Shown here piece after piece: positions 3,983 through 47,135 of a DNA stretch of 54,727 nt. Origin of the DNA: Acidimicrobiia bacterium (GTDB taxonomy: Bacteria; Actinomycetota; Acidimicrobiia; Spongiisociales; DATADW01). Position numbers and translations under genes: made by a program. Under the pieces are notes generated by a model, which ran no database searches, was not told the DNA's origin, and saw only the letters and a program-made list of their open reading frames with translations. The stretch spans positions 1-54,727 of the forward strand of contig DATADW010000382.1 in NCBI GenBank assembly GCA_036258335.1. Reading direction: 5' to 3'. How positions within the stretch are numbered: the first letter of the stretch is position 1; every line of letters begins with the position of its first letter.

Positions 3983-4104
3983 AGCTCCTCCTCCCAACCC
4001 CCTTGCGAAACGGCCTCCGACGTTGCAGTCGGCCCGCCAGCCGAACTTATCAGAGCCGGAGCGGCGATGTCGGCCGTGGGGCCCTTTGCGGCAAAGTGGT
4101 GACG

Positions 4105-5544
4105 ATGGGCGCTCGCACCTACGGTGATCGCGGATCCATGCCGTATCGCCTATTCGCCCTGGTGGCCGCGGTGGTGGCAGTCGTCACCTCTATCGCCTCG
4201 CCCGCCCGCGCCGACCGCATCATGGACGAGCACTTCGAGGAGTATCCCTGGTCGGCCGATGCCGACAACGCCCCGTGGTCGGATGTGCGCTCCGCCGACC
4301 TCGCCAACAGCAGTCTCGGGCCAGGTTTCCTCGAGTCCGGGTTGTCGGTGACGATCCCGGCCGGTGAGCAGCGCGGTGTCGGTCCCTTCTACGGGTTCAA
4401 GGGCGAGGGGCCCCTCGAGGCCTGGTTCCGCTATTACGTCTGGCTCGAGCGATGGCGCCCCACCTACTCGGGAAAGCTCCCGGGCCTCTCCGGCGTGTAC
4501 GGCTCGTCGGCTAAGGGGTGCATTCCTCCTGAGCAGGGAAATCCTGGGTGGTCGGCCCGGCTCTATTGGCTGCCGCCCGGGGTCGACGGGGTGGGTGTCG
4601 GTGAGACGGCGATCGGATCGTACGTGTACCACCTCGACCAGCCGACCGAGTGCGGAAATGCCCTCGCCTGGAATCCCGGCGAGCTGGAGCGACAGCGATG
4701 GCATTGCATCCAGGGCCACGTGCGGATGAACACCCTTGGCCAGTCCAACGGCGTCCTCGAGGGGTGGATCGACGGGGTCAAGGCGTTTCGGCGCGCCGAC
4801 CTCAGATTCCGCCTCGAAGGGCAGAAGTCCGTTCGGATCAAGCAGTTCTGGCTCGACGTGTTCTTCGGCGGACCATCGGCCACCCCGAACAAGCTGGTGC
4901 TCAGGCTCGACGAGATCGCCGTCTCCAAGGACGGGAGGCCCGGTTGCATCGATCCATTCACCGATGACAACACCTCGACTCACGAGGGCGACCTCACCGA
5001 GCTCCACGCCCGAGGTTTCATCGAGGGGTGCAGCCGCCGTCTTGCCTGTCCCGACGACAACCTCACCAGGGCGGAGATGGCGGTGCTCTTGGTTCGTGTG
5101 CTCTCGCTACCCAAGACCGACACCAACCACTTCCGCGACGACAACGATCACTGGGCGGAGCCGTACATAGACCGGCTGGCCGCCAGCGGGATCACCATGG
5201 GGTGCGACCGACGTCTCTTCTGTCCCGAGGACCCGGTGACCCGTGCCGAGCTCGCCACCTTCCTCGACCGCGCCTACGACCCACCGGGGACGAGCCAGGA
5301 CTTCTTCGGCGACGACGACGATCACTGGGCGCGCAACGGCATCAACCGGCTCGCCGCCGCCGGCGTGATCAACGGGTGCACCGCCACGGCGTTCTGTCCG
5401 GAGGCGACGATCACCCGCGGGCAGACGGCAGCGCTGCTCGCCAGGGCGGTCCGCTGGGCGGAGGGCCTGACCGACGATGTCGTGGTGTCGACGACGCTCA
5501 GCGAGTCGGAGCGTGATGCCCTCACCGCCGGGGACCACGACTAG
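4105..5544 (+). CDS. Secreted protein with an N-terminal polysaccharide-lyase-like (concanavalin-type) domain and three C-terminal SLH-like repeats
   Basis: Signal peptide [25 protein letters not shown]|DR (alternative start ATG 4138). Lyase-like pattern GKLPGLSG...GWSARLYW...[10 protein letters not shown]...FWLDVFFGG. Three repeats match F.DD..HWA..I..L...GI..GC....FCP....TRAE.A..L.RA (nt 4957-5451). Confidence 0.7.
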
Positions 5545-26466: not shown

Positions 26467-26877
26467 TCACTCGGAGAGTGAATCCGGGTCGAGGTCGATT
26501 TCGACTACGGCGGCGATGCGATTGAGGTCGGCGTCGTGGACCAGCAGAGATGCTCTGGTCCGCCAGGCAACCGCGGCGATCATGCAGTCGACCATCCCCC
26601 TCGGAGTGATCCCTGAGCGTCGGCACCGCCGGTAGATGGTGGCAGCGCCTTCGAAGTCGACCACCGAATCGAACCGGAGGAGATGGAATCTCAGCAGCAG
26701 GCGCCGGAGGTCGGCAGCGCTCGCTTCGTCGCGAGCTCCGGCGAGCACTTCCATCGCAACGGGCTCGGTGACGGCGAGTTCGTCGCCGGCCGCGATCAGC
26801 TCTGTGAGACGCCGATCTACCGGGCTGCCCGTTCCCCGGTCGTACTCGACCCAGGCCGAGGTGTCGGCAAGTATCAC
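26467..26877 (-). CDS. vapC: PIN-domain toxin VapC
   Basis: 136 aa. MILADTSAWVEY (first acidic residue), EVLAG, MVDCMIAAVA, LVHDADL. 4-nt overlap with vapB. Confidence 0.85.
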   Translation of the reverse strand: MILADTSAWVEYDRGTGSPVDRRLTELIAAGDELAVTEPVAMEVLAGARDEASAADLRRLLLRFHLLRFDSVVDFEGAATIYRRCRRSGITPRGMVDCMIAAVAWRTRASLLVHDADLNRIAAVVEIDLDPDSLSE

Positions 26878-27086
26878 GACCCGCCAGTGGGGCCAGCATC
26901 CTCGGGCGGAGTTTCCATGGCGTGGGCGCCACGCATCTTCAGGGCCTCCTCACGGGTCATCGGCAACCCGGCGAGCTGTCTGAGGGCAAGGTCGACAGCC
27001 TCGGTCTTGGTCCTGACCCCGTAGCGGTCCATGATTGCCTCGACATAGCGGCTGTCGATTTCGATGTTGGTGCGAACCCGGGTCAT
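26874..27086 (-). CDS. vapB: VapB-family antitoxin (DUF2191/Arc-like)
   Basis: A 70-aa reading from ATG 27086: MTRVRTNIEIDSRYVEAIMDRYGVRTKTEAVDLALRQL. The longer ORF-track extension runs into repeat sequence. Confidence 0.8.
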   Translation of the reverse strand: MTRVRTNIEIDSRYVEAIMDRYGVRTKTEAVDLALRQLAGLPMTREEALKMRGAHAMETPPEDAGPTGGS

Positions 27087-27127
27087 ACACCAAATATACA
27101 CGCTAGGTGTAGAAATGGTGTACCACT
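27087..27127 (-). promoter_or_regulatory. Candidate vapBC promoter/operator
   Basis: Locally AT-richer. On the minus strand, GGTACACC-ATTTC-TACACC-TAGC-GTGTA-TATTT-GGTGTA precedes the ATG. It includes the inverted repeat TACAC(N5)GTGTA (27097-27111) and a TATATT -10-like hexamer. Confidence 0.4.
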
Positions 27128-27189
27128 TGGATGGCAAATAGGTCGCGCCATCACCCTCCCCAACCACCCCTTCCCCCACCGAGATGGGA

Positions 27190-27224
27190 AACGGAAGGTG
27201 GAAGACGGAAGTCGGGAGTCGGGA
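27190..27224 (+). repeat. Tandem heptamer array upstream of vapB
   Basis: AACGGAA-GGTGGAA-GACGGAA-GTCGGGA-GTCGGGA, in the same orientation as the 26404-26450 array. It lies inside a segment bounded by the inverted repeat GGTGTACCACT (27117-27127) / AGTGGTACAC (27230-27239). Confidence 0.8.
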
Positions 27225-27336
27225 CGGGGAGTGGTACACGGCACGAGTGTTTACCATCGGGAAGAGGCCCGACACCAAGTGTCCGTCCCATGCTGTCCCG
27301 CTCTGTCGTCCTAGCCGGGGAGCGGACGGGACCAAC

Positions 27337-29648
<2,312 letters not shown>

Positions 29649-29652
<4 letters not shown>

Positions 29653-34861: not shown

Positions 34862-35207
34862 TCGGGGCGGTTCGGCCGGAGGTCTGTCGCGACGACTGGT
34901 CGTCCCCTTCATGGTGACGGCGGCATCCGTCGCGTTGTTGCTGGTCACCGTGGGCGGTGCGGAAGAGCCCGCGGAGTCCACCCCTCCATCGACGGCGGGC
35001 TCCGCACCTCCACCATCGACCGATACCCAGCAGGCCATACCCGCCCAGCCTCTGGTCTCCGAGCTGGACTCCGCGGTACAACGCGTTCTGGCTGAGACCG
35101 GTGCCAGCCGTCTGGTGCCCGCCGCCCAGCTGCGCCGCCTTCCCGGCTCGGTGGTGGCTGTGCTGCGTGCCGAGCAGACGGCTCTCACCGTGGGATCGAC
35201 TCCATGA
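34851..35207 (+). CDS. Membrane-anchored hypothetical protein (118 aa)
   Basis: ATG 34851 overlaps the previous stop by 11 nt. TM segment VVPFMVTAASVALLLVTV, a Pro/Ser/Thr linker, then a short folded-looking C-terminal region containing ETGAS. Confidence 0.5.
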   Translation: MTTDRGGSAGGLSRRLVVPFMVTAASVALLLVTVGGAEEPAESTPPSTAGSAPPPSTDTQQAIPAQPLVSELDSAVQRVLAETGASRLVPAAQLRRLPGSVVAVLRAEQTALTVGSTP

Positions 35208-39941: not shown

Positions 39942-41548
39942 AGAGCCGAGGCGACCATCGCCCCGACCGCGATGATGACGTCGGGCTCGGAGAGAACGAT
40001 CGCAGCCGGGCCGGTTCCCAGTCGGAGCGACTCGGCGAGGACGCTCGACGACGAGCTCGATCCGCGCCCTGAGGGCATGATGACCACCCGCCCCGCCACG
40101 GACTCCCCGTAGTTGGGGTGATGAGGGTCGATGATCCGGCCGTCGGCGGGGTCAACGCCACCCCAGAACGAGAGCGGCTGACCGAGCGGAAGCGTCGAGC
40201 CGGTGGCTCTGCCCGCAAACAGGACGACACTGGTTGTCGTGTCGGCCGGGGGTTCTGGTGGGGCAGTCTCCTCCCATCGGACCTGGTCTCCGCTACCCCA
40301 CAACGCGGAACGGCGACGCACCTCGCCCGACAGCGCTGAGGCGACACAGTCGCCGCGAGATCCGAAAACCACGTCCACCCCCAGGTTGGCCGGGGCGTAC
40401 CAGGCCCATTTGGCCGAGTCGGTCATCACCACCCTCGCCGCGGGGTCGAGGATCGGGGTGATGTAGGTGCAGGTGTCGGTGACCATCCGCACCCCGGCAG
40501 CCTCGAGGGCTTCGACATCCGAGCTGGCTGCCGCGAGATCACCGCGGCCAGTGTGCACATACGTATCGACCCGCACCCTGTGGCCATCGAGGAGACGAGC
40601 CAACTCGGCGAGCTCAGCCAGTGAGGCGTGCGGGGTTCCCATGCAGACGGCGTCGAGACTCCCGTCGCCCGCGGTGGTCAGTTCGTTGGCAGCGGCGGCG
40701 AGCAACTCGGGACCCACGACCACCTCGTATTCGGGCTCGCACCCACCGAGAGCGTCGCCGAGCGTCGCCGCCTCGGGGGTCACCCCCACGGCATGGAACA
40801 TCGCCACTGAGCCAACCGAGGCAGCAGCGGCGCCGAGCGCTTTGAGCCGATCCTCGCTCGTTTCTGGAGGCAGACCTACCACCGCCGGTACCCTCGCCCC
40901 CGCCAACCGGCCAAGGGCGTGCCCCAACACCGGGTAGAGGGCATCGTCATCGAGCCACTCGACCGGGACGCCAGTGAGACGAACGACGAGGCGGGCGCGC
41001 CGACCAGAGTCGAGATGGAGCCCTGCCGCCGGTGCCCGGCCTGCGACCGCGGCGCAGATGTCGATGAAGTCGCCGTAGCGGCTGGTGCGCGCCCCGAGGA
41101 CGCTGTTAGCGAACACGATGGCGTTGGACTCGGCCCAGGCCACCTGCTCACCGAGCGATGGACGCTCCATAAGCTGGTAGGGGGCGCAAGTCCAGGTGGG
41201 GCGGCACCCCAACTCGAGGTAGGCATCCATGAGCCGACGAGCTTGGGCAGCCGACTCCGGATCTCCTCGAAAGCGCTCCGGGTGGAGGAGGTCGAGAGAG
41301 GAGACGTTGAGGGTGGTCGGCACCGCGACCCTCGCATTTGCTTCCACCAGCCGTGTAGCGAAGTCGAGACCGGCCTGACCGTGATAGAGGCATCCGTCGA
41401 TGTGGGCCCCGGTGATGTCGAGCAATCGCTCGGCGCCCATGGCCTTCGCCGCCCCGACCACCAATTCCATCGCAATCCGGGGACCGTCGCCGCGGGCGCC
41501 ATCCAACATGTCGAGATCGCCGTCATCGAGATGGAGGTTCTGTTGCAC
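39833..41548 (-). CDS. Aconitase X, fused DUF521 catalytic and DUF126 swivel domains (type-I AcnX, cis-3-hydroxy-L-proline dehydratase-like)
   Basis: 571 aa. ITGAHIDGCLYHGQAGLDF, TWTCAPYQ, WAESNAIVFANSVLGARTSRYG. C-terminal swivel with PLSFWGGVDP...GRVVIMPSGRGSSSSS. Confidence 0.75.
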   Translation of the reverse strand: MQQNLHLDDGDLDMLDGARGDGPRIAMELVVGAAKAMGAERLLDITGAHIDGCLYHGQAGLDFATRLVEANARVAVPTTLNVSSLDLLHPERFRGDPESAAQARRLMDAYLELGCRPTWTCAPYQLMERPSLGEQVAWAESNAIVFANSVLGARTSRYGDFIDICAAVAGRAPAAGLHLDSGRRARLVVRLTGVPVEWLDDDALYPVLGHALGRLAGARVPAVVGLPPETSEDRLKALGAAAASVGSVAMFHAVGVTPEAATLGDALGGCEPEYEVVVGPELLAAAANELTTAGDGSLDAVCMGTPHASLAELAELARLLDGHRVRVDTYVHTGRGDLAAASSDVEALEAAGVRMVTDTCTYITPILDPAARVVMTDSAKWAWYAPANLGVDVVFGSRGDCVASALSGEVRRRSALWGSGDQVRWEETAPPEPPADTTTSVVLFAGRATGSTLPLGQPLSFWGGVDPADGRIIDPHHPNYGESVAGRVVIMPSGRGSSSSSSVLAESLRLGTGPAAIVLSEPDVIIAVGAMVASALYGSVCPVVVAAEDVPSASGVPVEVVAGDGGVNLVW

Positions 41549-41800
41549 GGCGAGATTCTGGTCGGTGGGGCCTCACGCTTCCGCGGGCCGGTGAGACGAT
41601 TTCCAGGCTCTCGGGTTCGCAAGCGCCAGATTTTCGGTATTCTTCCCACAACGCCGAGCCCGGTCGGAGAGACCGGGGCGGGGGACCCAAATCAATGGGG
41701 CGAATCCCGGTACGCCGGGTAGGGCGCCTTCCGGCCCGAGCCCGTCAGCTAACCCCGTAGGCAGCAGGAAGGAGGCCAGCTCGCTGGCTCTCCGCGGAAC

Positions 41801-41817
41801 GCCGGTCCGGGACCGGC
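41801..41817. promoter_or_regulatory. 17-bp perfect palindrome 22 nt upstream of the 2-phosphoglycerate-kinase start
   Basis: GCCGGTCC-G-GGACCGGC. Confidence 0.3.
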
Positions 41818-41838
41818 CGACATGAGGGGGCGGAGGAC

Positions 41839-42777
41839 ATGCCGCACCGGAGAGCCGATACCAACGTGCGACGGCGGGTATGGGTCGCCGATCGCGAGGG
41901 TGCCAACCTGCCCTACTCGAAGGGGCTCATGGCGGCTTCGATAATGGCCACCGGTATCCCACCGGGCCGCGCCTATGACTTGGCCGAGCTCATCGAGCAC
42001 GATCTGGTCTCGCTGGGACGAGATGGCGTTGATGCCGACACGCTCTCCGGTATCGCGGCCGACGTCCTGCAACGCCATGTCGGGGATCACATAGCGCGTC
42101 GCTACCTCGCCTGGCGGGCGGCGAAGCGCTCGCCGCGCCCCATCGTCGTCCTCATCGGAGGCGCCACCGGGGTGGGCAAGTCGACCGTGGCCACCAAGCT
42201 CGCCGCCCGCCTCGGAATCACCAGGGTCATCCCCACCGACACGGTACGCGAGGTGATGCGCACCTTCATGCCTGCCCTCCAGGCACCCGAACTGCATAGC
42301 TCGTCGTTCGAAGTGGGAGGACAGGATGAGAACCTGATCGACGGTTTCCTCCGCCAGAGCAGATCGGTGGCCACCGGGATCGACGGCGTGGTGGGGAGGA
42401 TGATCGCCGAGCACAAGGACGCAATCGTCGAGGGGATCCACCTGGTACCCGGGATGCTCGACGAGGAGATCCTCCACCGGTTCCGACTCGAGGCAGCGGT
42501 GGTCAAGGTACTGCTCACCCTTCCGGATGCCTTGGTGCATCGGGCGCACTTCATCGGACGCCTGGAGAGCGAGCATGGCCGGCGCCCTGAGCGCTATCTG
42601 CGTAACCTCGGTGACATCCGCCGAATCCAGACCCACCTCGAGGCATTGGCCGGGGCGCACGGGTTCTCGCTGGTCGACGCCTCCGACCTCGACGAGGCGA
42701 TCCAGCAGGTGCTCGACGTGGTCGTCGCCGAGGTCACCAGCATCACGGGGGAGAGCCAGGTGTTCGCTGCCGGGTGA
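41839..42777 (+). CDS. 2-phosphoglycerate kinase-like protein (ATP-cone plus P-loop kinase)
   Basis: 312 aa. ATP-cone-like N-terminus (VWVADREGANLPYSKGLMAASI...ARRYLAWR), P-loop VLIGGATGVGKST and ITRVIPTD. The start could instead be GTG 41866. Confidence 0.75.
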   Translation: MPHRRADTNVRRRVWVADREGANLPYSKGLMAASIMATGIPPGRAYDLAELIEHDLVSLGRDGVDADTLSGIAADVLQRHVGDHIARRYLAWRAAKRSPRPIVVLIGGATGVGKSTVATKLAARLGITRVIPTDTVREVMRTFMPALQAPELHSSSFEVGGQDENLIDGFLRQSRSVATGIDGVVGRMIAEHKDAIVEGIHLVPGMLDEEILHRFRLEAAVVKVLLTLPDALVHRAHFIGRLESEHGRRPERYLRNLGDIRRIQTHLEALAGAHGFSLVDASDLDEAIQQVLDVVVAEVTSITGESQVFAAG

Positions 42778-44081
42778 CCTCCACCCGGGCCTTGGTCCTC
42801 ATCGACGGCGAACACCACCCATCTGTTGTGCGAGATGGGCTGGTCGAGCTCGAGCGGCGCGGCATGCCTGCGGTGGCGGCGCTGTTCCTCGGCGGCTCCG
42901 AGAAGACGGCGGGTCCCCCCGATCTGTCCGTCCCGGTCCACTCGGGCGACCCGGCCTCAACTCTCGGCGATCTGATCGCCCGCTACCGCCCCGACGTGGT
43001 CTTCGACATGAGTGATGAGCCGATACTCGATCACCGTGCCCGTTTCGTCCTGGTGGGTGTGGCCCTCGCCGCCGGCGTCGCCTATGCCGGCGGAGGGTTC
43101 CGGTTCGACCCCCCGCCCACCCCCCGGCTGACGGACACTGCCTCGGTCGCCGTGACGGGCACCGGGAAGCGGACGGGGAAGACCGCAGTGTCGATCGCCT
43201 TGGCGCGCCACTGGGCGGCTGCCGGGAGGAGACCGGTTGTGGTCACGATGGGCCGCGGGGGGCCGCCCGAGCCCGTGGTTCTCGACCCCGGGAACCTCGC
43301 CGACCCCGTGGATGCGCTCCGCTCGCTGGCCAGCCGCGGACTCCACGCCGCCTCGGATTACGTCGAAGACGCCATCTTCGCCGGAGTCCCCACCGTCGGG
43401 ACGAGGCGGATCGGCGCCGGTCCCGCCGGGGTGACCGTGGACGACACTTTCGCCGCCGGGGTCGCCGCCGCTACCGACCTCGACCCGGGGCTTCTCATCT
43501 TCGAGGGAAGCGGGACCGCTCTCCCCCCGGCGCGTGCTGACACCGGTGTGTTGGTTATGCGGTCCCAACTCGATGGGGAGTACATCGGCGGGTACCTGGG
43601 CCCGTTTCGCCTGGCGATGGCGGATGCGGTGGTCGTGGTTGAAGACGGTGGATCGGCGGCGGCGGTCGTGCGCCGGGTGTCGCCGGGCACGGTTGTCTTC
43701 GAGGGTCGCTATGTCGTCGAGCCGACGGTGTCCGTGGAGGGAAGACGGGTCACAGTTGCGACCACCGCCCCGGTGACCGCCGGGGACGAGCTGGCCGCCC
43801 AACTGCGCAGTCTCGGCGCCGCGGCTGCGACGGTGATCCATACCCTCTCAAAACGCAACCGGCTCATCGCCGACCTGGAGGCCGCCCCACGGTGCGACCT
43901 GGTTCTCACCGAGGTCAAGGCCGCTGCGGCCGATGTGGTCCTCCCGTGGGCGGATAGGAGCCAGATCGATGTCGGTCTACTACACAACGTGGTGCAGGTC
44001 GAAGGGGGGATCGGGTCTCTGGCCGGTGCCCTGGAGCAGCGGTTACCTTCACCCCAAGCGCCTCAGCCGAGCACCCGGTAG
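42774..44081 (+). CDS. Cyclic 2,3-diphosphoglycerate synthetase-like protein
   Basis: 435 aa, GTG start in a GTGA overlap with the kinase. Motifs LIDGEHHP, GGSEK, DMSDEPILDHRARF, GTGKRTGKTAVS, MGRGGPPEP, HAASDYVED, FEGSGTALPP, GPFRLAMAD, TTAP, LTEVKAAAADV. Confidence 0.75.
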   Translation: MTSTRALVLIDGEHHPSVVRDGLVELERRGMPAVAALFLGGSEKTAGPPDLSVPVHSGDPASTLGDLIARYRPDVVFDMSDEPILDHRARFVLVGVALAAGVAYAGGGFRFDPPPTPRLTDTASVAVTGTGKRTGKTAVSIALARHWAAAGRRPVVVTMGRGGPPEPVVLDPGNLADPVDALRSLASRGLHAASDYVEDAIFAGVPTVGTRRIGAGPAGVTVDDTFAAGVAAATDLDPGLLIFEGSGTALPPARADTGVLVMRSQLDGEYIGGYLGPFRLAMADAVVVVEDGGSAAAVVRRVSPGTVVFEGRYVVEPTVSVEGRRVTVATTAPVTAGDELAAQLRSLGAAAATVIHTLSKRNRLIADLEAAPRCDLVLTEVKAAAADVVLPWADRSQIDVGLLHNVVQVEGGIGSLAGALEQRLPSPQAPQPSTR

Positions 44082-44377
44082 ATCTTCCGAATCGGCTCGC
44101 GCCGGAGTAAGCCCCTCACCCGTTCCTGACTGGCGACCAGCTCAGGGGAGTCGAGGGCCGCCTCCATCGCCTCCACCGATGTCCAGCGGGTGATCACTCC
44201 ACCCTCGACGAGCCCGCTCACCCCCGCTTCCTCTGCGATTACCAGGTCGATTCCCAGGCAATCGGGGTGGTCGCGGAAGGCAGGGACGACATCGGTCTCG
44301 AACAGGCGGATGACCTCCTCGACATCGTCGGGGGAGACCGCCGAGAGGAAGAAGCGGATGTAGCTCACCAGCCCCAC
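44063..44377 (-). CDS. ABM/Dabb-fold (antibiotic-biosynthesis-monooxygenase-like) small protein
   Basis: About 101-104 aa. An alternative GTG 44368 start gives a GTGA overlap with the upstream metallophosphoesterase stop. The 3' end overlaps the convergent cDPGS-like stop by 19 nt. Confidence 0.5.
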   Translation of the reverse strand: MGLVSYIRFFLSAVSPDDVEEVIRLFETDVVPAFRDHPDCLGIDLVIAEEAGVSGLVEGGVITRWTSVEAMEAALDSPELVASQERVRGLLRREPIRKIYRVLG

Positions 44378-45264
44378 GTGGATTTTGAGAACATGCCGGC
44401 CAGCTCGGGGTTGCGGTCGAGCACGCGGGTGGTTCGGTCGTACCTGGCGGCCAGCTTCTCGCCGCTACCCGGATACATCAGGGTTACCGAGATGGCCTCG
44501 GGGTCAATGGTGACCACGTTGTACGACGGCCTGGCGTAGCCCCGAAGCCGGAAGGACGAGACGGTCCCGCTGTTGACCACCATGATCCCGTCGACCACCC
44601 AGATATGGGGCACGTGCTTGTGACCACAGAGAACCAGATCCACACCGCTCTCTTCGAGCACCGCCAGCACGTCGCCGGCATCCCACACGGTGTTGCGCTC
44701 CCGCCCCGTTCCCGGGACCGGTACCAGATGGTGATGGAGTGCGAATATTCGGAAGTCCGATGGGGTGGCGAACTGCTCGCGGATCCACGGGTAGCGGAAC
44801 CTTCCCACCTCTCCCTCGGCGAGGTCGGGCTTGGAGCTATCCACCGCTACCAACGTGACCCGCTCCGGTGTGACACCCCTGGCTAGGTCGACGACCACGT
44901 CGTTTCCGGCGTCCCCCTTGCCGAAGTGGTCCTCGAAATGGACGTAACCGACGTTCTTGGCGTCGTGGTTCCCCGGGACGACCACGGTGAGCAGCTCGTC
45001 GAGCAGGGGGCGCAGCGCGTCGCGCGCCATCTGGAACTCGTTGGCGTAGCCCTCCTGGGTGAGATCGCCGGCGACCACCACCATGTCGGGTTGGAGGGCG
45101 AGCACCTCTTCGACGGCGTGATTGAGCAGGCCGGGGTCGAAGTACAGAGAGCCGCAGTGGATGTCCGACAGCTGGGCGATGGTGAGCACGACTGTGCCCG
45201 ATGCTAACCACGGCCGCTCGTCGGGATGTGGCTCCCTCCGGGCCACCGCGGTGACGGTGCTCAC
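44365..45264 (-). CDS. Calcineurin-like metallophosphoesterase
   Basis: 299 aa, GTG start. Motifs SDIHCG, VVAGDLTQEG, VPGNHD, ALHHH, LCGHKH. Confidence 0.8.
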   Translation of the reverse strand: MSTVTAVARREPHPDERPWLASGTVVLTIAQLSDIHCGSLYFDPGLLNHAVEEVLALQPDMVVVAGDLTQEGYANEFQMARDALRPLLDELLTVVVPGNHDAKNVGYVHFEDHFGKGDAGNDVVVDLARGVTPERVTLVAVDSSKPDLAEGEVGRFRYPWIREQFATPSDFRIFALHHHLVPVPGTGRERNTVWDAGDVLAVLEESGVDLVLCGHKHVPHIWVVDGIMVVNSGTVSSFRLRGYARPSYNVVTIDPEAISVTLMYPGSGEKLAARYDRTTRVLDRNPELAGMFSKSTWGW

Positions 45265-45289
45265 CTACTCCCGAAGCACTACCGCGGTG

Positions 45290-45575
45290 ACCGGGGGTAG
45301 ACCCACTTTCCTCAGTGGGAGTCGACTCCCCCTCCCGGTGAGGGAGGGGAAACCTTTGGCATGGCCTTGCGGCGCATTGCTTCCGTCCCCCGAAGGGGGG
45401 AAGGGACCCGCTGCGGAGCAGCGGGCAGGAGGGAGCACCGAGCCTCCCAGAGGTGAGCCTGGCGCGGCTTTCGCACCGTTGGGAGTTCGCCATGCCCCCC
45501 TCCCCCTCGGGGAGAGGGAATCGTTTCCTTCGGGGGGACGGAATCGAACGAGCCGTCTTCCATCATCCCTCTTGC
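45290..45575. repeat. Intergenic mosaic repeat E5, a head-to-head double copy
   Basis: The left half matches the reverse complement of E1: CCGTCCCCCGAAGGGGGGAAGGGACCCGCTGCGGAGCAGCGGG. The right half matches E1 directly, with core CGCACCGTTGGGAGTTCGCCA (45472-45492) and ...GGGGGGACGGAATCGAACGAGCCGTCTTCC. It also holds the palindrome GGGAGTCGACTCCC and hairpin CTCCCGGTGAGGGAG. Confidence 0.8.
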
Positions 45576-47135
45576 TCACTCCACACTGACTACGACCGAG
45601 TGGTAGCCGGTCGCTCCGTCGGGGGCCGGTGGTGCAACCTCATCGGTTTGGGCGTCACCGTTGCCGTCGGTGGCACGCACCATGATCGAGTGAGCTCCTG
45701 GGGTCGCCTCCCACGGCATCCGCCATTGGCGCCATGTTGTATCGGCCAGTTCGGCGGCGAGCTCGGCGGGCTGCCATTGCCCGCCATCCACCCTCACCTC
45801 GACACCGCTGATCCCGCGTGTCGGCGCCCAGGCGACACCGGCGATGGTCCGCTGGCCGGGACGGATCGTGGCGCCATCCACCGGGACATCGATCCGCGAC
45901 TGGGTCTTTATCGGCGCCTCCTTGGACCAACCACGCGGCACCCAGTAGGCATCGAAGGCGTCCCAGGAGGTGAGCTCGACCTCGGTGAGCCACTTGGTAG
46001 CCGACACGTACCCATACAGCCCGGCGACAATCAGCCGGGCGGGGAATCCGTGCTCGAAGGGAAGCGGCTCACCGTTCATCCCTACTGCCACTAAGGCATC
46101 GCGCCCGTCGAGAGCCGCCTCGGTGGGAAAGCCAACGGTGAAGCCGTCGACCGACCGTCCCACGATTTGGGTCGCCCCCGGTTGCATACCCGCTCGCTCC
46201 AACAGCGCCGGGAGAGGGACGCCCATCCACTTGGCGGTGCCGATCAGATTGCCACCCACCTCGTTGCTGACGCAGGCGATGGTGACGTGACGCTCCGCCA
46301 AGGGCATCTCGATCAGATCTGTGAACTCGATCTCGAAGGGCCGGTCCACCATCCCAGTGAATCCGAGCCGCCAGGTGCTCAGGTCCACCCTCGGCACGGT
46401 TAGTGCGGTATCGATGCGGTAAAAGTCGGCGTTCGGTGTGACCAGGGGTGAGAGCCCCTCGACCTGGAACGATGCTCGGGCCGGTGGCGCGGCCACGGTC
46501 TCGGTCGCCGCCGGCAGCACCACATCGTCGCGGCCCGCCAGCATGCGCCTCGCCCGATCGGCGATGAGGCGCCCCCCGGCGAATGCCAGCGCGGCCAGCG
46601 CAACCACCGACCCGGCAGCAAGGATGAATGCTCGCCTCCCCTTGTCGGTGCCCGCGTCAACGGCCGAAATGCCCAGCCGAAGCAGACCTATCAGCACCAC
46701 GATTCCCACGAGTGCAGCGATCGACGCCGCCACCCAGACACCCCATGGCGAGGCATCGGGGATCCGCAAGGCCGACAGTGCCCCGGCCAACCCGAACGCA
46801 GCGAAAGCGATGACCGCCCACCCCATCCACCGGGCAGTCAGCAGTCCGACAACCGCACCGATGCCGGCAATGACCAATACCGACCCCACCAAAAGGGCGG
46901 TCTTGTCGTTGGTGCCGAAAATCCCAATGGCAGCGTCCTTCACGCCAGGCGGCACCGTGTCGATGACGAACGTCCCCACCGATTCGAGCAGCGAGGGGAC
47001 ATCGGTCAGCAACCCGGCGACCAACTCTGATGCGCCCAGAGCCGCCAAGGCGGCCACCACCCCGGAGACAGCTTGTCGCCCTCGGTGTGACCCCATGGTC
47101 GGAGTCGGGGCAATCGGGGCTTCGGTGGTGGCCAT
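45576..47135 (-). CDS. Sulfite-oxidase-family molybdopterin oxidoreductase with an N-terminal multi-TM domain
   Basis: 519 aa. FYRIDTA, ACVSNEVGG (Mo-ligand Cys region), GFPARLIVAGLYGYVSATKWL. Confidence 0.8.
   Translation of the reverse strand: MATTEAPIAPTPTMGSHRGRQAVSGVVAALAALGASELVAGLLTDVPSLLESVGTFVIDTVPPGVKDAAIGIFGTNDKTALLVGSVLVIAGIGAVVGLLTARWMGWAVIAFAAFGLAGALSALRIPDASPWGVWVAASIAALVGIVVLIGLLRLGISAVDAGTDKGRRAFILAAGSVVALAALAFAGGRLIADRARRMLAGRDDVVLPAATETVAAPPARASFQVEGLSPLVTPNADFYRIDTALTVPRVDLSTWRLGFTGMVDRPFEIEFTDLIEMPLAERHVTIACVSNEVGGNLIGTAKWMGVPLPALLERAGMQPGATQIVGRSVDGFTVGFPTEAALDGRDALVAVGMNGEPLPFEHGFPARLIVAGLYGYVSATKWLTEVELTSWDAFDAYWVPRGWSKEAPIKTQSRIDVPVDGATIRPGQRTIAGVAWAPTRGISGVEVRVDGGQWQPAELAAELADTTWRQWRMPWEATPGAHSIMVRATDGNGDAQTDEVAPPAPDGATGYHSVVVSVE

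Follow-up and report, generated by a model that had tools for sequence, protein, structure and literature searches.

Cyclic 2,3-diphosphoglycerate (cDPG) counts in the literature as a signature solute of hyperthermophilic methanogens. The molecule is a trianion, and K+ is its counter-ion in methanogens. The chemistry of the archaeal enzymes, leading from 2-phosphoglycerate (2-PG) via 2,3-diphosphoglycerate (2,3-DPG) to cDPG, is established (PMC10690619, PMC12136491, PMC1224877). The compound is an anionic osmolyte with a proposed role in carbon, phosphate and energy storage, and a cDPG hydrolase activity has been described in Methanothermobacter thermautotrophicus (PMC1224877). Riboswitches of the cyclic di-adenosine monophosphate (c-di-AMP) class terminate the expression of kimA, ktrAB and kdpFABC; in the control of K+ and osmotic balance they are seen as off-switches (PMC10636490, PMC9960051, PMC7266159). 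Homologues of both cDPG enzymes, encoded by two adjacent open reading frames (ORFs A and B) behind a c-di-AMP riboswitch, are found in a 54,727-nt stretch of DNA from an uncultured Acidimicrobiia bacterium (the complete contig DATADW010000382.1 of a metagenome-assembled genome), which is called the window in the following. ORF A encodes a protein of the 2-phosphoglycerate kinase (2PGK) family, ORF B a cDPG synthetase homologue. The locus is, in our estimate, fairly likely to be an operon under repression by c-di-AMP whose product, cDPG, is an anionic solute that balances K+. A preliminary description of the window had remarked that cDPG was not known from any bacterium, in agreement with the statement that it occurs 'exclusively' in hyperthermophilic methanogens (PMC10690619). 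No paper on bacterial cDPG genes was found in the searchable literature.

ORF B matches the cDPG synthetase of Methanothermus fervidus (PDB 8ork) with an E-value of 1.7e-64, residues 5-417 aligning to residues 6-442 of the chain (phmmer). The entries 8oru (E=2e-64) and 9sxb (E=3.6e-58) were also retrieved, and the search yielded no PDB match at E<=1 beyond these three, all named cDPG synthetase. ORF B obtained no match in the Pfam and NCBIfam sets searched, the Pfam set being one without PF27272; this family (CpgS_N) is on record for the protein P0001, which is 95% identical to ORF B. The AlphaFold2 model (predicted local distance difference test, pLDDT, 92.2) combines a family-specific N-terminal domain with a P-loop kinase-like C-terminal domain. 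It superposes on the ligand-bound structure 8oru with a template modelling (TM) score of 0.90 and on 8ork with 0.82 over 448 columns (Foldseek). The next-best fold is LpxK (TM 0.42), a result that resembles the one reported for the archaeal enzyme by its crystallographers (PMC10690619).

In the M. fervidus enzyme, 2,3-DPG, Mg2+ and ATP are contacted by E45 and K46 (both from the partner subunit), K145, R146, K149, T150, D208, E305, T353, E404 and K406 (PMC10690619). An alignment of 22 synthetases comprised the protein of the window, 17 other bacterial and 4 methanogen sequences. The residues E43, K44, K132, R133, K136, T137, D195, T331, E380 and K382 of ORF B, which correspond to E45, K46, K145, R146, K149, T150, D208, T353, E404 and K406 of M. 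fervidus, are invariant in all of them. The Walker A motif reads GTGKRTGKT (residues 129-137). For the adenosine contact E305, HMMER pairs a glutamate of the window's protein, MAFFT shifts it by two residues, and the position varies in the window's clade. Residue 335 of 8ork, described as the adenosine contact 'P335', is F in the alignment and pairs with Y in ORF B. The motifs from which the preliminary description had assigned ORF B to the cDPG synthetases (LIDGEHHP, GGSEK, DMSDEPILDHRARF, GTGKRTGKTAVS, MGRGGPPEP, HAASDYVED, EGSGTALPP, GPFRLAMAD, TTAP and LTEVKAAAADV) are all present, and the assignment is borne out by the full-length match to 8ork, the ligand residues and the superposition. 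From alignment and model, ORF B is homologous to cDPG synthetase over the full length and keeps the residues in contact with 2,3-DPG, Mg2+ and the ATP phosphates, and cDPG synthetase activity is predicted for it.

ORF A is covered nearly end to end by both NCBIfam models for 2PGK. NF008994 matched with E=3.8e-77 and 260 bits; the match of NF003259 (E=3.4e-71, 240 bits) pairs residues 19-304 with positions 10-297 of a profile of 306. The model for mevalonate-3-phosphate 5-kinase, a member of the same superfamily, scored far lower (83 bits). This agrees with the initial placement in the COG2074-type 2PGK family, and the motifs quoted for it, VLIGGATGVGKST and VIPTD, are present. An ATP-cone-like N-terminus had also been proposed. 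The Pfam ATP-cone family PF03477 reached 25.7 bits on residues 19-95, narrowly under its cut-off of 25.8, and P-loop families begin at residue 96. PF03477 is on record for close homologues of ORF A, and the AlphaFold model (pLDDT 86.8) has a separate N-terminal domain besides a core like that of nucleoside monophosphate (NMP) kinases. The fold matches are generic NMP, shikimate and gluconate kinases, which carry no substrate information; a ribonucleotide-reductase entry is among them. The domain is thus upheld by homologue records, model and fold match, the Pfam profile alone falling short. A PDB sequence search with ORF A found nothing. Relatives of ORF A are named 'hypothetical' or 'zeta toxin family' by NCBI and 2-phosphoglycerate kinase by JGI. 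ORF A is a clear member of the 2PGK family that scores below the level at which NCBI transfers the name, and phosphorylation of 2-PG at O3 is predicted for it.

The distribution of the pair was surveyed with one genome per GTDB species. The pair is not rare: at least 578 species genomes carry a relative, and counts out of 80 given below refer to the best 80 of these at least 578. All 80 are bacterial metagenome-assembled genomes (MAGs), mostly of Actinomycetota or Acidimicrobiia, from groundwater, soil, sand filters, deserts and a few hot springs. The top protein matches also come from Acidimicrobiia and Actinomycetota MAGs, and the closest relative is the Danish MAG 'uncultured Actinomycetes bacterium MFD00962.bin.2.16', with a synthetase 94% identical to ORF B. 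Among the candidates scored, 2,248 protein database clusters for ORF B and 4,410 for ORF A were obtained at E<=1e-5. Many relatives have already been named '2,3-diphosphoglycerate synthetase' or '2-phosphoglycerate kinase' by NCBI or JGI.

A kinase homologue adjoins the synthetase gene on the same strand in 79/80 genomes. Three arrangements occur. The majority has the synthetase gene followed by the kinase gene inside a conserved actinobacterial block hom-thrC-thrB ... rho, often with a metallophosphoesterase gene before and an fsa/tal gene after the pair. The second consists of synthetase, opposite-strand phosphoesterase and kinase genes. In the third, that of the window's clade, the kinase gene precedes the synthetase gene with a 4-nt overlap, and the pair is convergent with a couple of ABM and phosphoesterase genes. 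The overlap had been noticed before and is found at 42774-42777, where the TGA stop of ORF A and the GTG start of ORF B share the letters GTGA; a 4-nt stop/start overlap is also present in seven related loci (L001, L165-L169, L171). A functional partnership of kinase and synthetase, as read from the gene order, is supported by the near-universal pairing and by the overlap in the window's clade. In the synthetase-first loci L012-L081, the module (phosphoesterase)-synthetase-kinase-(fsa/tal) sits between thrB and rho. Its position within the conserved hom-thrC-thrB-rho block argues for long vertical inheritance there.

In a neighbour-joining tree with midpoint root, the window's clade forms the longest branch, and the methanogen sequences fall within the bacterial diversity. 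Other Actinomycetota synthetases share 46-50% identity with the M. fervidus enzyme, compared with 34% for that of the window. A simple transfer from archaea to bacteria, raised in the preliminary description, finds no support in this rough tree. As a distance method without outgroup and with few archaeal lineages was used, no conclusion on the direction of transfer is drawn. A compositional sign of recent transfer was not seen in ORFs A and B when their GC content at third codon positions (GC3) was compared with that of neighbouring genes.

The possibility that the locus is a non-functional relic of a transferred archaeal cluster, or an annotation artefact with a fortuitous riboswitch match, deserves hardly any credence. 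It could draw on the synthetase gene being split into two ORFs in two related MAGs, L003 (5119-6310) and L165 (4472-5760), by pseudogenisation or by indel errors of long-read assemblies. Both ORFs of the window are intact, however, and their codon usage is native, with GC3 values of 0.83 (ORF A) and 0.82 (ORF B) that match neighbouring genes and are of coding type. Purifying selection is strong, dN/dS against the nearest MAGs being 0.075-0.16 for both ORFs and 0.075-0.10 for ORF A alone. The pair is kept across at least 80 species, and riboswitch scores of 77-91 bits were obtained for 12 independent loci. The synonymous divergence from the nearest MAG, L002, is a mosaic, with dS of 0.81 for the kinase gene, 0.18 for the synthetase gene, 0.08 for the ABM gene and 0.06 for the phosphoesterase gene. 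A kinase 98% identical to ORF A (P0121) was found in a MAG other than L002. Together, these two observations suggest that the 5' end of the operon has undergone recombination or the replacement of an allele.

The leader of the operon contains a match to the c-di-AMP riboswitch model RF00379 (85.1 bits versus a gathering score of 38, E=1.9e-18) that extends over the complete model (positions 1-134 of 134). No other Rfam match in the whole window reaches gathering level. The element ends 61 nt before the ATG of ORF A. The preliminary description had considered the span 41839-44081, which leaves out the riboswitch at 41642-41778; the riboswitch is the strongest clue to the function of the operon. 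The aptamer is located directly upstream of the orthologous kinase gene in 12/12 loci of this kinase subfamily (77-91 bits), that is, in the window and in L002, L003, L165-L168, L087, L088 and L169-L171. It is kept down to about 51% kinase identity and across differing outer gene contexts. The stems are maintained by compensatory changes, which were seen in eight predicted pairs. The inverted repeat of the leader, the second hairpin, the purine-rich ribosome-binding region and the ATG could be aligned in nine loci. A scan of 41400-45700 for sigma-70 promoters and intrinsic terminators yielded nothing above shuffled expectation.

The riboswitch-linked kinases form one clade, so that a single acquisition is the simplest history. 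A purpose-built covariance model, made from the aptamers of kinase-linked loci, detected nothing comparable in 77 synthetase-first genomes, in metagenomic loci chosen by their phosphoesterase or in methanogen loci. The Rfam model found no riboswitch in 11 representative synthetase-first loci. In the searchable literature, which excludes the gene lists of the primary riboswitch surveys, no paper links a c-di-AMP riboswitch to 2PGK or cDPG. One MAG harbors two kinase paralogues: L170 (JBOGFC010000081.1) stands alone behind a riboswitch, and L005 (JBOGFC010000163.1) lies downstream of a synthetase gene, without riboswitch. The riboswitch before the stand-alone kinase suggests that the kinase step, the supply of 2,3-DPG, is the control point. 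Two genes downstream of the L170 kinase, a type-I phosphodiesterase of PF01663 is encoded, the family of the Streptomyces c-di-AMP phosphodiesterase AtaC.

In the proposed pathway, ORF A would phosphorylate 2-PG with ATP to 2,3-DPG, as judged from homology. ORF B would then transfer the gamma-phosphate of ATP onto the 2-phosphate of 2,3-DPG; an attack by the 3-phosphate would release inorganic phosphate and close the cyclic pyrophosphate, cDPG. By analogy to the described members of the class, we infer that the riboswitch is an off-switch at high c-di-AMP. The leader RNA would bind c-di-AMP and keep the operon off when c-di-AMP is high, in K+-replete cells or at high turgor. As c-di-AMP falls, the state in which bacteria turn on the uptake of K+ and osmoprotectants, the operon would be switched on. 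cDPG would then be made alongside K+ accumulation, as an organic counter-anion and compatible solute. It might in addition be a store of phosphate and energy, and its recycling may be the task of the metallophosphoesterase encoded next to the pair. Since low c-di-AMP is the state of K+ and osmoprotectant import and cDPG is anionic, a role as counter-anion appears most coherent. A purely thermoprotective role is unlikely in view of the habitats of the carriers, predominantly soil, groundwater and sand filters.

Several observations weigh against a c-di-AMP-controlled cDPG operon. ORF B belongs to the most divergent bacterial branch of the synthetases, with its low identity of 34% to the M. fervidus enzyme, and the adenosine contact E305 is not reliably kept in this branch. 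ORF A remains below the curated equivalog cut-offs (240 versus 343 bits for NF003259, 260 versus 603 bits for NF008994). The PDB search provided no solved 2PGK structure for mapping its substrate site, and 2PGK-like kinases are tied to other processes elsewhere, e.g. plant LPA1. About 77/80 species genomes have no riboswitch; c-di-AMP control has thus been added in a particular lineage and is not general to the pathway. Actinobacterial members of the riboswitch class have been reported almost only before cell-wall genes, and one of them is reported to act on translation (PMC9960051). No U-tract terminator follows the aptamer. The minimum free energy (MFE) of the leader is no better than that of shuffled sequence (z=0.5), and no specific switching mechanism is therefore claimed.

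The points on the enzymes would also fit a repurposing, in which one or both proteins act on other substrates and cDPG is not the product. We give this little credence. ArcE, a distant paralogue that became an arginine synthetase, shows that functions have changed within the superfamily of ORF B, which occurs widely in bacteria (PMC11032458), and 2PGK-like kinases have been linked to other pathways (mevalonate-3-phosphate 5-kinase, plant LPA1). The scores of ORF A under the equivalog thresholds and the long branch of the window's synthetase clade point the same way; synthetase homologues in Thermococcales and thermophilic ammonia oxidisers have been reported as genes only. Yet no variation is seen, between the methanogens and ORF B, in the residues described as binding 2,3-DPG and Mg2+, and the model of ORF B superposes closely on the ligand-bound structure. 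According to its authors, ArcE has little similarity to cDPG synthetases (PMC11032458), and the PDB matches of ORF B at E<=1 are all entries named cDPG synthetase. A two-step pathway predicts just such a pairing with a 2PGK-family kinase as is seen almost universally, and no arcB or arcC gene is located nearby. An identity of ORF B with ArcE itself was considered and rejected, on the E-value to cDPG synthetase, the kept 2,3-DPG residues, the kinase partner and the lack of arcB and arcC among the genes scanned. Neither the genes in the flanking 5 kb or so on each side nor the further window ORFs that were scanned encode a domain of ornithine transcarbamylase or carbamate kinase.

The same chemistry may serve another purpose than a bulk osmolyte or K+ counter-ion, either as a reserve of phosphate, energy or carbon or as a low-level metabolic effector, e.g. 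2,3-DPG as primer of cofactor-dependent phosphoglycerate mutase. Such a purpose, storage above all, is the main alternative and, in our opinion, unlikely. The way in which cDPG breakdown is regulated in M. thermautotrophicus is consistent with the storage of carbon and phosphate, and the reaction of the M. fervidus synthetase can run backwards, with regeneration of ATP (PMC1224877). The stand-alone riboswitch-linked kinase L170, with the pair elsewhere in the same MAG, would make 2,3-DPG supply the regulated step. Most carriers have no riboswitch and keep the module among housekeeping genes (thr operon, fsa/tal, rho), and the frequent phosphoesterase neighbour would fit turnover. Known c-di-AMP riboswitch regulons, on the other hand, revolve around the transport of K+ and osmolytes and the remodelling of the cell wall rather than around reserves of phosphate or energy, and no Pho-type or phosphate-transport gene adjoins the pair in the window. 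Of the roles considered, that of a K+-balancing solute under c-di-AMP control is the one we prefer. A wider claim is more tentative. It holds that c-di-AMP directly governs de novo cDPG synthesis through the riboswitch in one Acidimicrobiia-like clade, that cDPG is a bacterial K+ counter-ion and osmolyte, and that the phosphoesterase and the ABM protein form a candidate cDPG hydrolase. In this full extent it is possible rather than probable.

The coordinates of the operon and its neighbours are compiled in Table 1.

Table 1. Features of the cDPG-type operon and of adjacent genes in the window.
Feature	Position	Strand	Evidence or remark
c-di-AMP riboswitch aptamer (ydaO/yuaA class, RF00379)	41642..41778	+	Rfam covariance match; 5' leader of the operon
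Leader from aptamer to ATG, likely expression platform	41779..41838	+	conserved inverted repeat and MFE fold
Leader hairpin 1, GGAGGCCAGC..GCUGGCUCUCC	41771-41793	+	overlaps the purine-rich 3' tail of the aptamer
Leader hairpin 2	41801-41817	+	followed by a purine-rich Shine-Dalgarno region right before the ATG
ORF A, 2-phosphoglycerate-kinase-family protein, ATG start, 312 aa	41839..42777	+	NCBIfam and Pfam profiles, AlphaFold model
ORF B, cDPG synthetase homologue, GTG start, 435 aa	42774..44081	+	PDB sequence match, Foldseek
Small ABM/Dabb-fold protein, 104 aa, possible accessory gene	44063..44377	-	Pfam ABM E=6e-6
Calcineurin-like metallophosphoesterase, 299 aa, candidate partner	44365..45264	-	Pfam Metallophos E=1e-18
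Aconitase X, catalytic and swivel domains fused, 571 aa	39833-41548	-	gene divergent from the operon

The metallophosphoesterase carries all metal-binding motifs, which are invariant in the alignment, and its closest solved relatives are Rv0805 and phosphodiesterases of the GpdQ type. A phosphoesterase gene adjoins the pair in 33/80 genomes, in three arrangements. Two subtypes behave differently in the reverse direction. In metagenomic loci of the other subtype, the synthetase gene lies directly downstream in 46/49 informative cases; for the subtype of the window (56-68% identical), the pair is nearby in only 3/24 loci. The metallophosphoesterase as an obligate partner was rejected on the counts of 33/80 forward and only 3/24 in reverse for the window's subtype. 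We know of no gene assigned to the cDPG hydrolase activity. The phosphoesterase, whose link to the pair is only moderate, is put forward as a candidate hydrolase for cDPG or 2,3-DPG.

The ABM gene is convergent with ORF B, the 3' ends overlapping by 19 nt, and overlaps the phosphoesterase gene by 13 nt. This couple is kept both with the cDPG pair (L165, L167, L168, L171) and without it. In many related metagenomic contigs (loci L089-L108), where the couple occurs without cDPG genes, an acyltransferase-like gene lies on one side. Downstream, on the other side, are two conserved genes, by eye CofC-like and LmbE-like, and an HU-like gene. The aconitase X gene on the opposite flank of the operon recurs in L001 and, in truncated form, in L165. 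As L166-L168 lack it, it probably lies outside the module.

Further features are located at a distance from the operon. No K+ transporter or diadenylate cyclase was seen among the remaining window genes. A VapBC-type toxin-antitoxin pair (PIN domain and VapB) adjoins the gene of a membrane H+-translocating pyrophosphatase (26467-29652, minus strand). A protein of 513 aa (4003-5544, plus strand) combines a polysaccharide lyase 14 domain with S-layer-homology (SLH) repeats and, judged by these domains, may be an SLH-anchored cell-surface enzyme. ARAGORN calls a 94-nt tRNA-Ala(GGC) at 35042-35135 (minus strand). It is probably a false positive, as Rfam gave no tRNA there at gathering score or at E<=1.

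At the level of single genes, the observation is already in the databases by name, and both the enzyme families and the riboswitch class are known. What differs is the combination of a bacterial, mostly mesophilic, cDPG-type operon with a c-di-AMP riboswitch in one clade. In many mostly mesophilic Actinomycetota, genes of the pathway occur commonly and have been maintained by vertical descent. In bacteria they are arranged as a compact operon, which in one clade is tied to the c-di-AMP signal for K+ and osmolyte balance. An annotation curiosity is thereby turned into a testable functional hypothesis, that of a K+-balancing anionic solute rather than a thermoprotectant. Besides genes for transport and the cell wall, c-di-AMP riboswitches would also control the biosynthesis of a solute. 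If this reading holds, the c-di-AMP regulon of osmotic homeostasis would gain a new output in cDPG, which would act as a bacterial K+ counter-ion and osmolyte. cDPG has been pursued as a commercial extremolyte, for which a good production host is lacking, and candidate enzymes derived from mesophiles are now on offer for its production. A candidate gene for cDPG breakdown has been nominated as well.

Among the described systems, the pathway of M. fervidus, other Methanobacteriales and Methanopyrus (8ork, 8oru) uses the same two enzyme families. The M. fervidus synthetase shares with ORF B the two-domain fold, the Walker A motif GTGKRxGKT and the contacts to 2,3-DPG, Mg2+ and ATP; the methanogen kinase shares with ORF A the architecture of ATP-cone and P-loop domains. 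The window differs in its bacterial host from mostly mesophilic habitats, in the c-di-AMP riboswitch and in the frequent phosphoesterase neighbour. Its genes are joined in one operon with a 4-nt overlap, whereas cpgS lies apart from the kinase gene in Methanothermobacter and M. fervidus. In these methanogens, the synthetase gene stands directly before a RimB-like (PF05618) gene (7405-7935 in L082/L083, 5914-6492 in L084). Pyrococcus yayanosii has adjacent cDPG genes as in the window (PYCH_14390-400), and their expression responds to pressure. It is an archaeal hyperthermophile, known in this respect from genes and expression, with no riboswitch reported.

The arginine synthetase ArcE of Thermococcus kodakarensis (TK2200) belongs, as a remote relative, to the P-loop superfamily of ORF B. 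Its substrates are arginine and citrulline, and its gene is clustered with arcB and arcC (PMC11032458). As far as this published description goes, ORF B is set apart from it by the match to cDPG synthetase, the kept 2,3-DPG residues and the 2PGK-family kinase partner. The c-di-AMP riboswitches of Bacillus (kimA, ktrAB, kdpFABC) and of Actinobacteria (rpfA, nlpC) resemble that of the window in the full-length aptamer and its position in the 5' leader. They differ in that no canonical terminator follows the aptamer of the window. Known c-di-AMP regulons comprise transporters and cell-wall hydrolases; the operon of the window encodes, in contrast, cytoplasmic enzymes predicted to synthesize an anionic solute.

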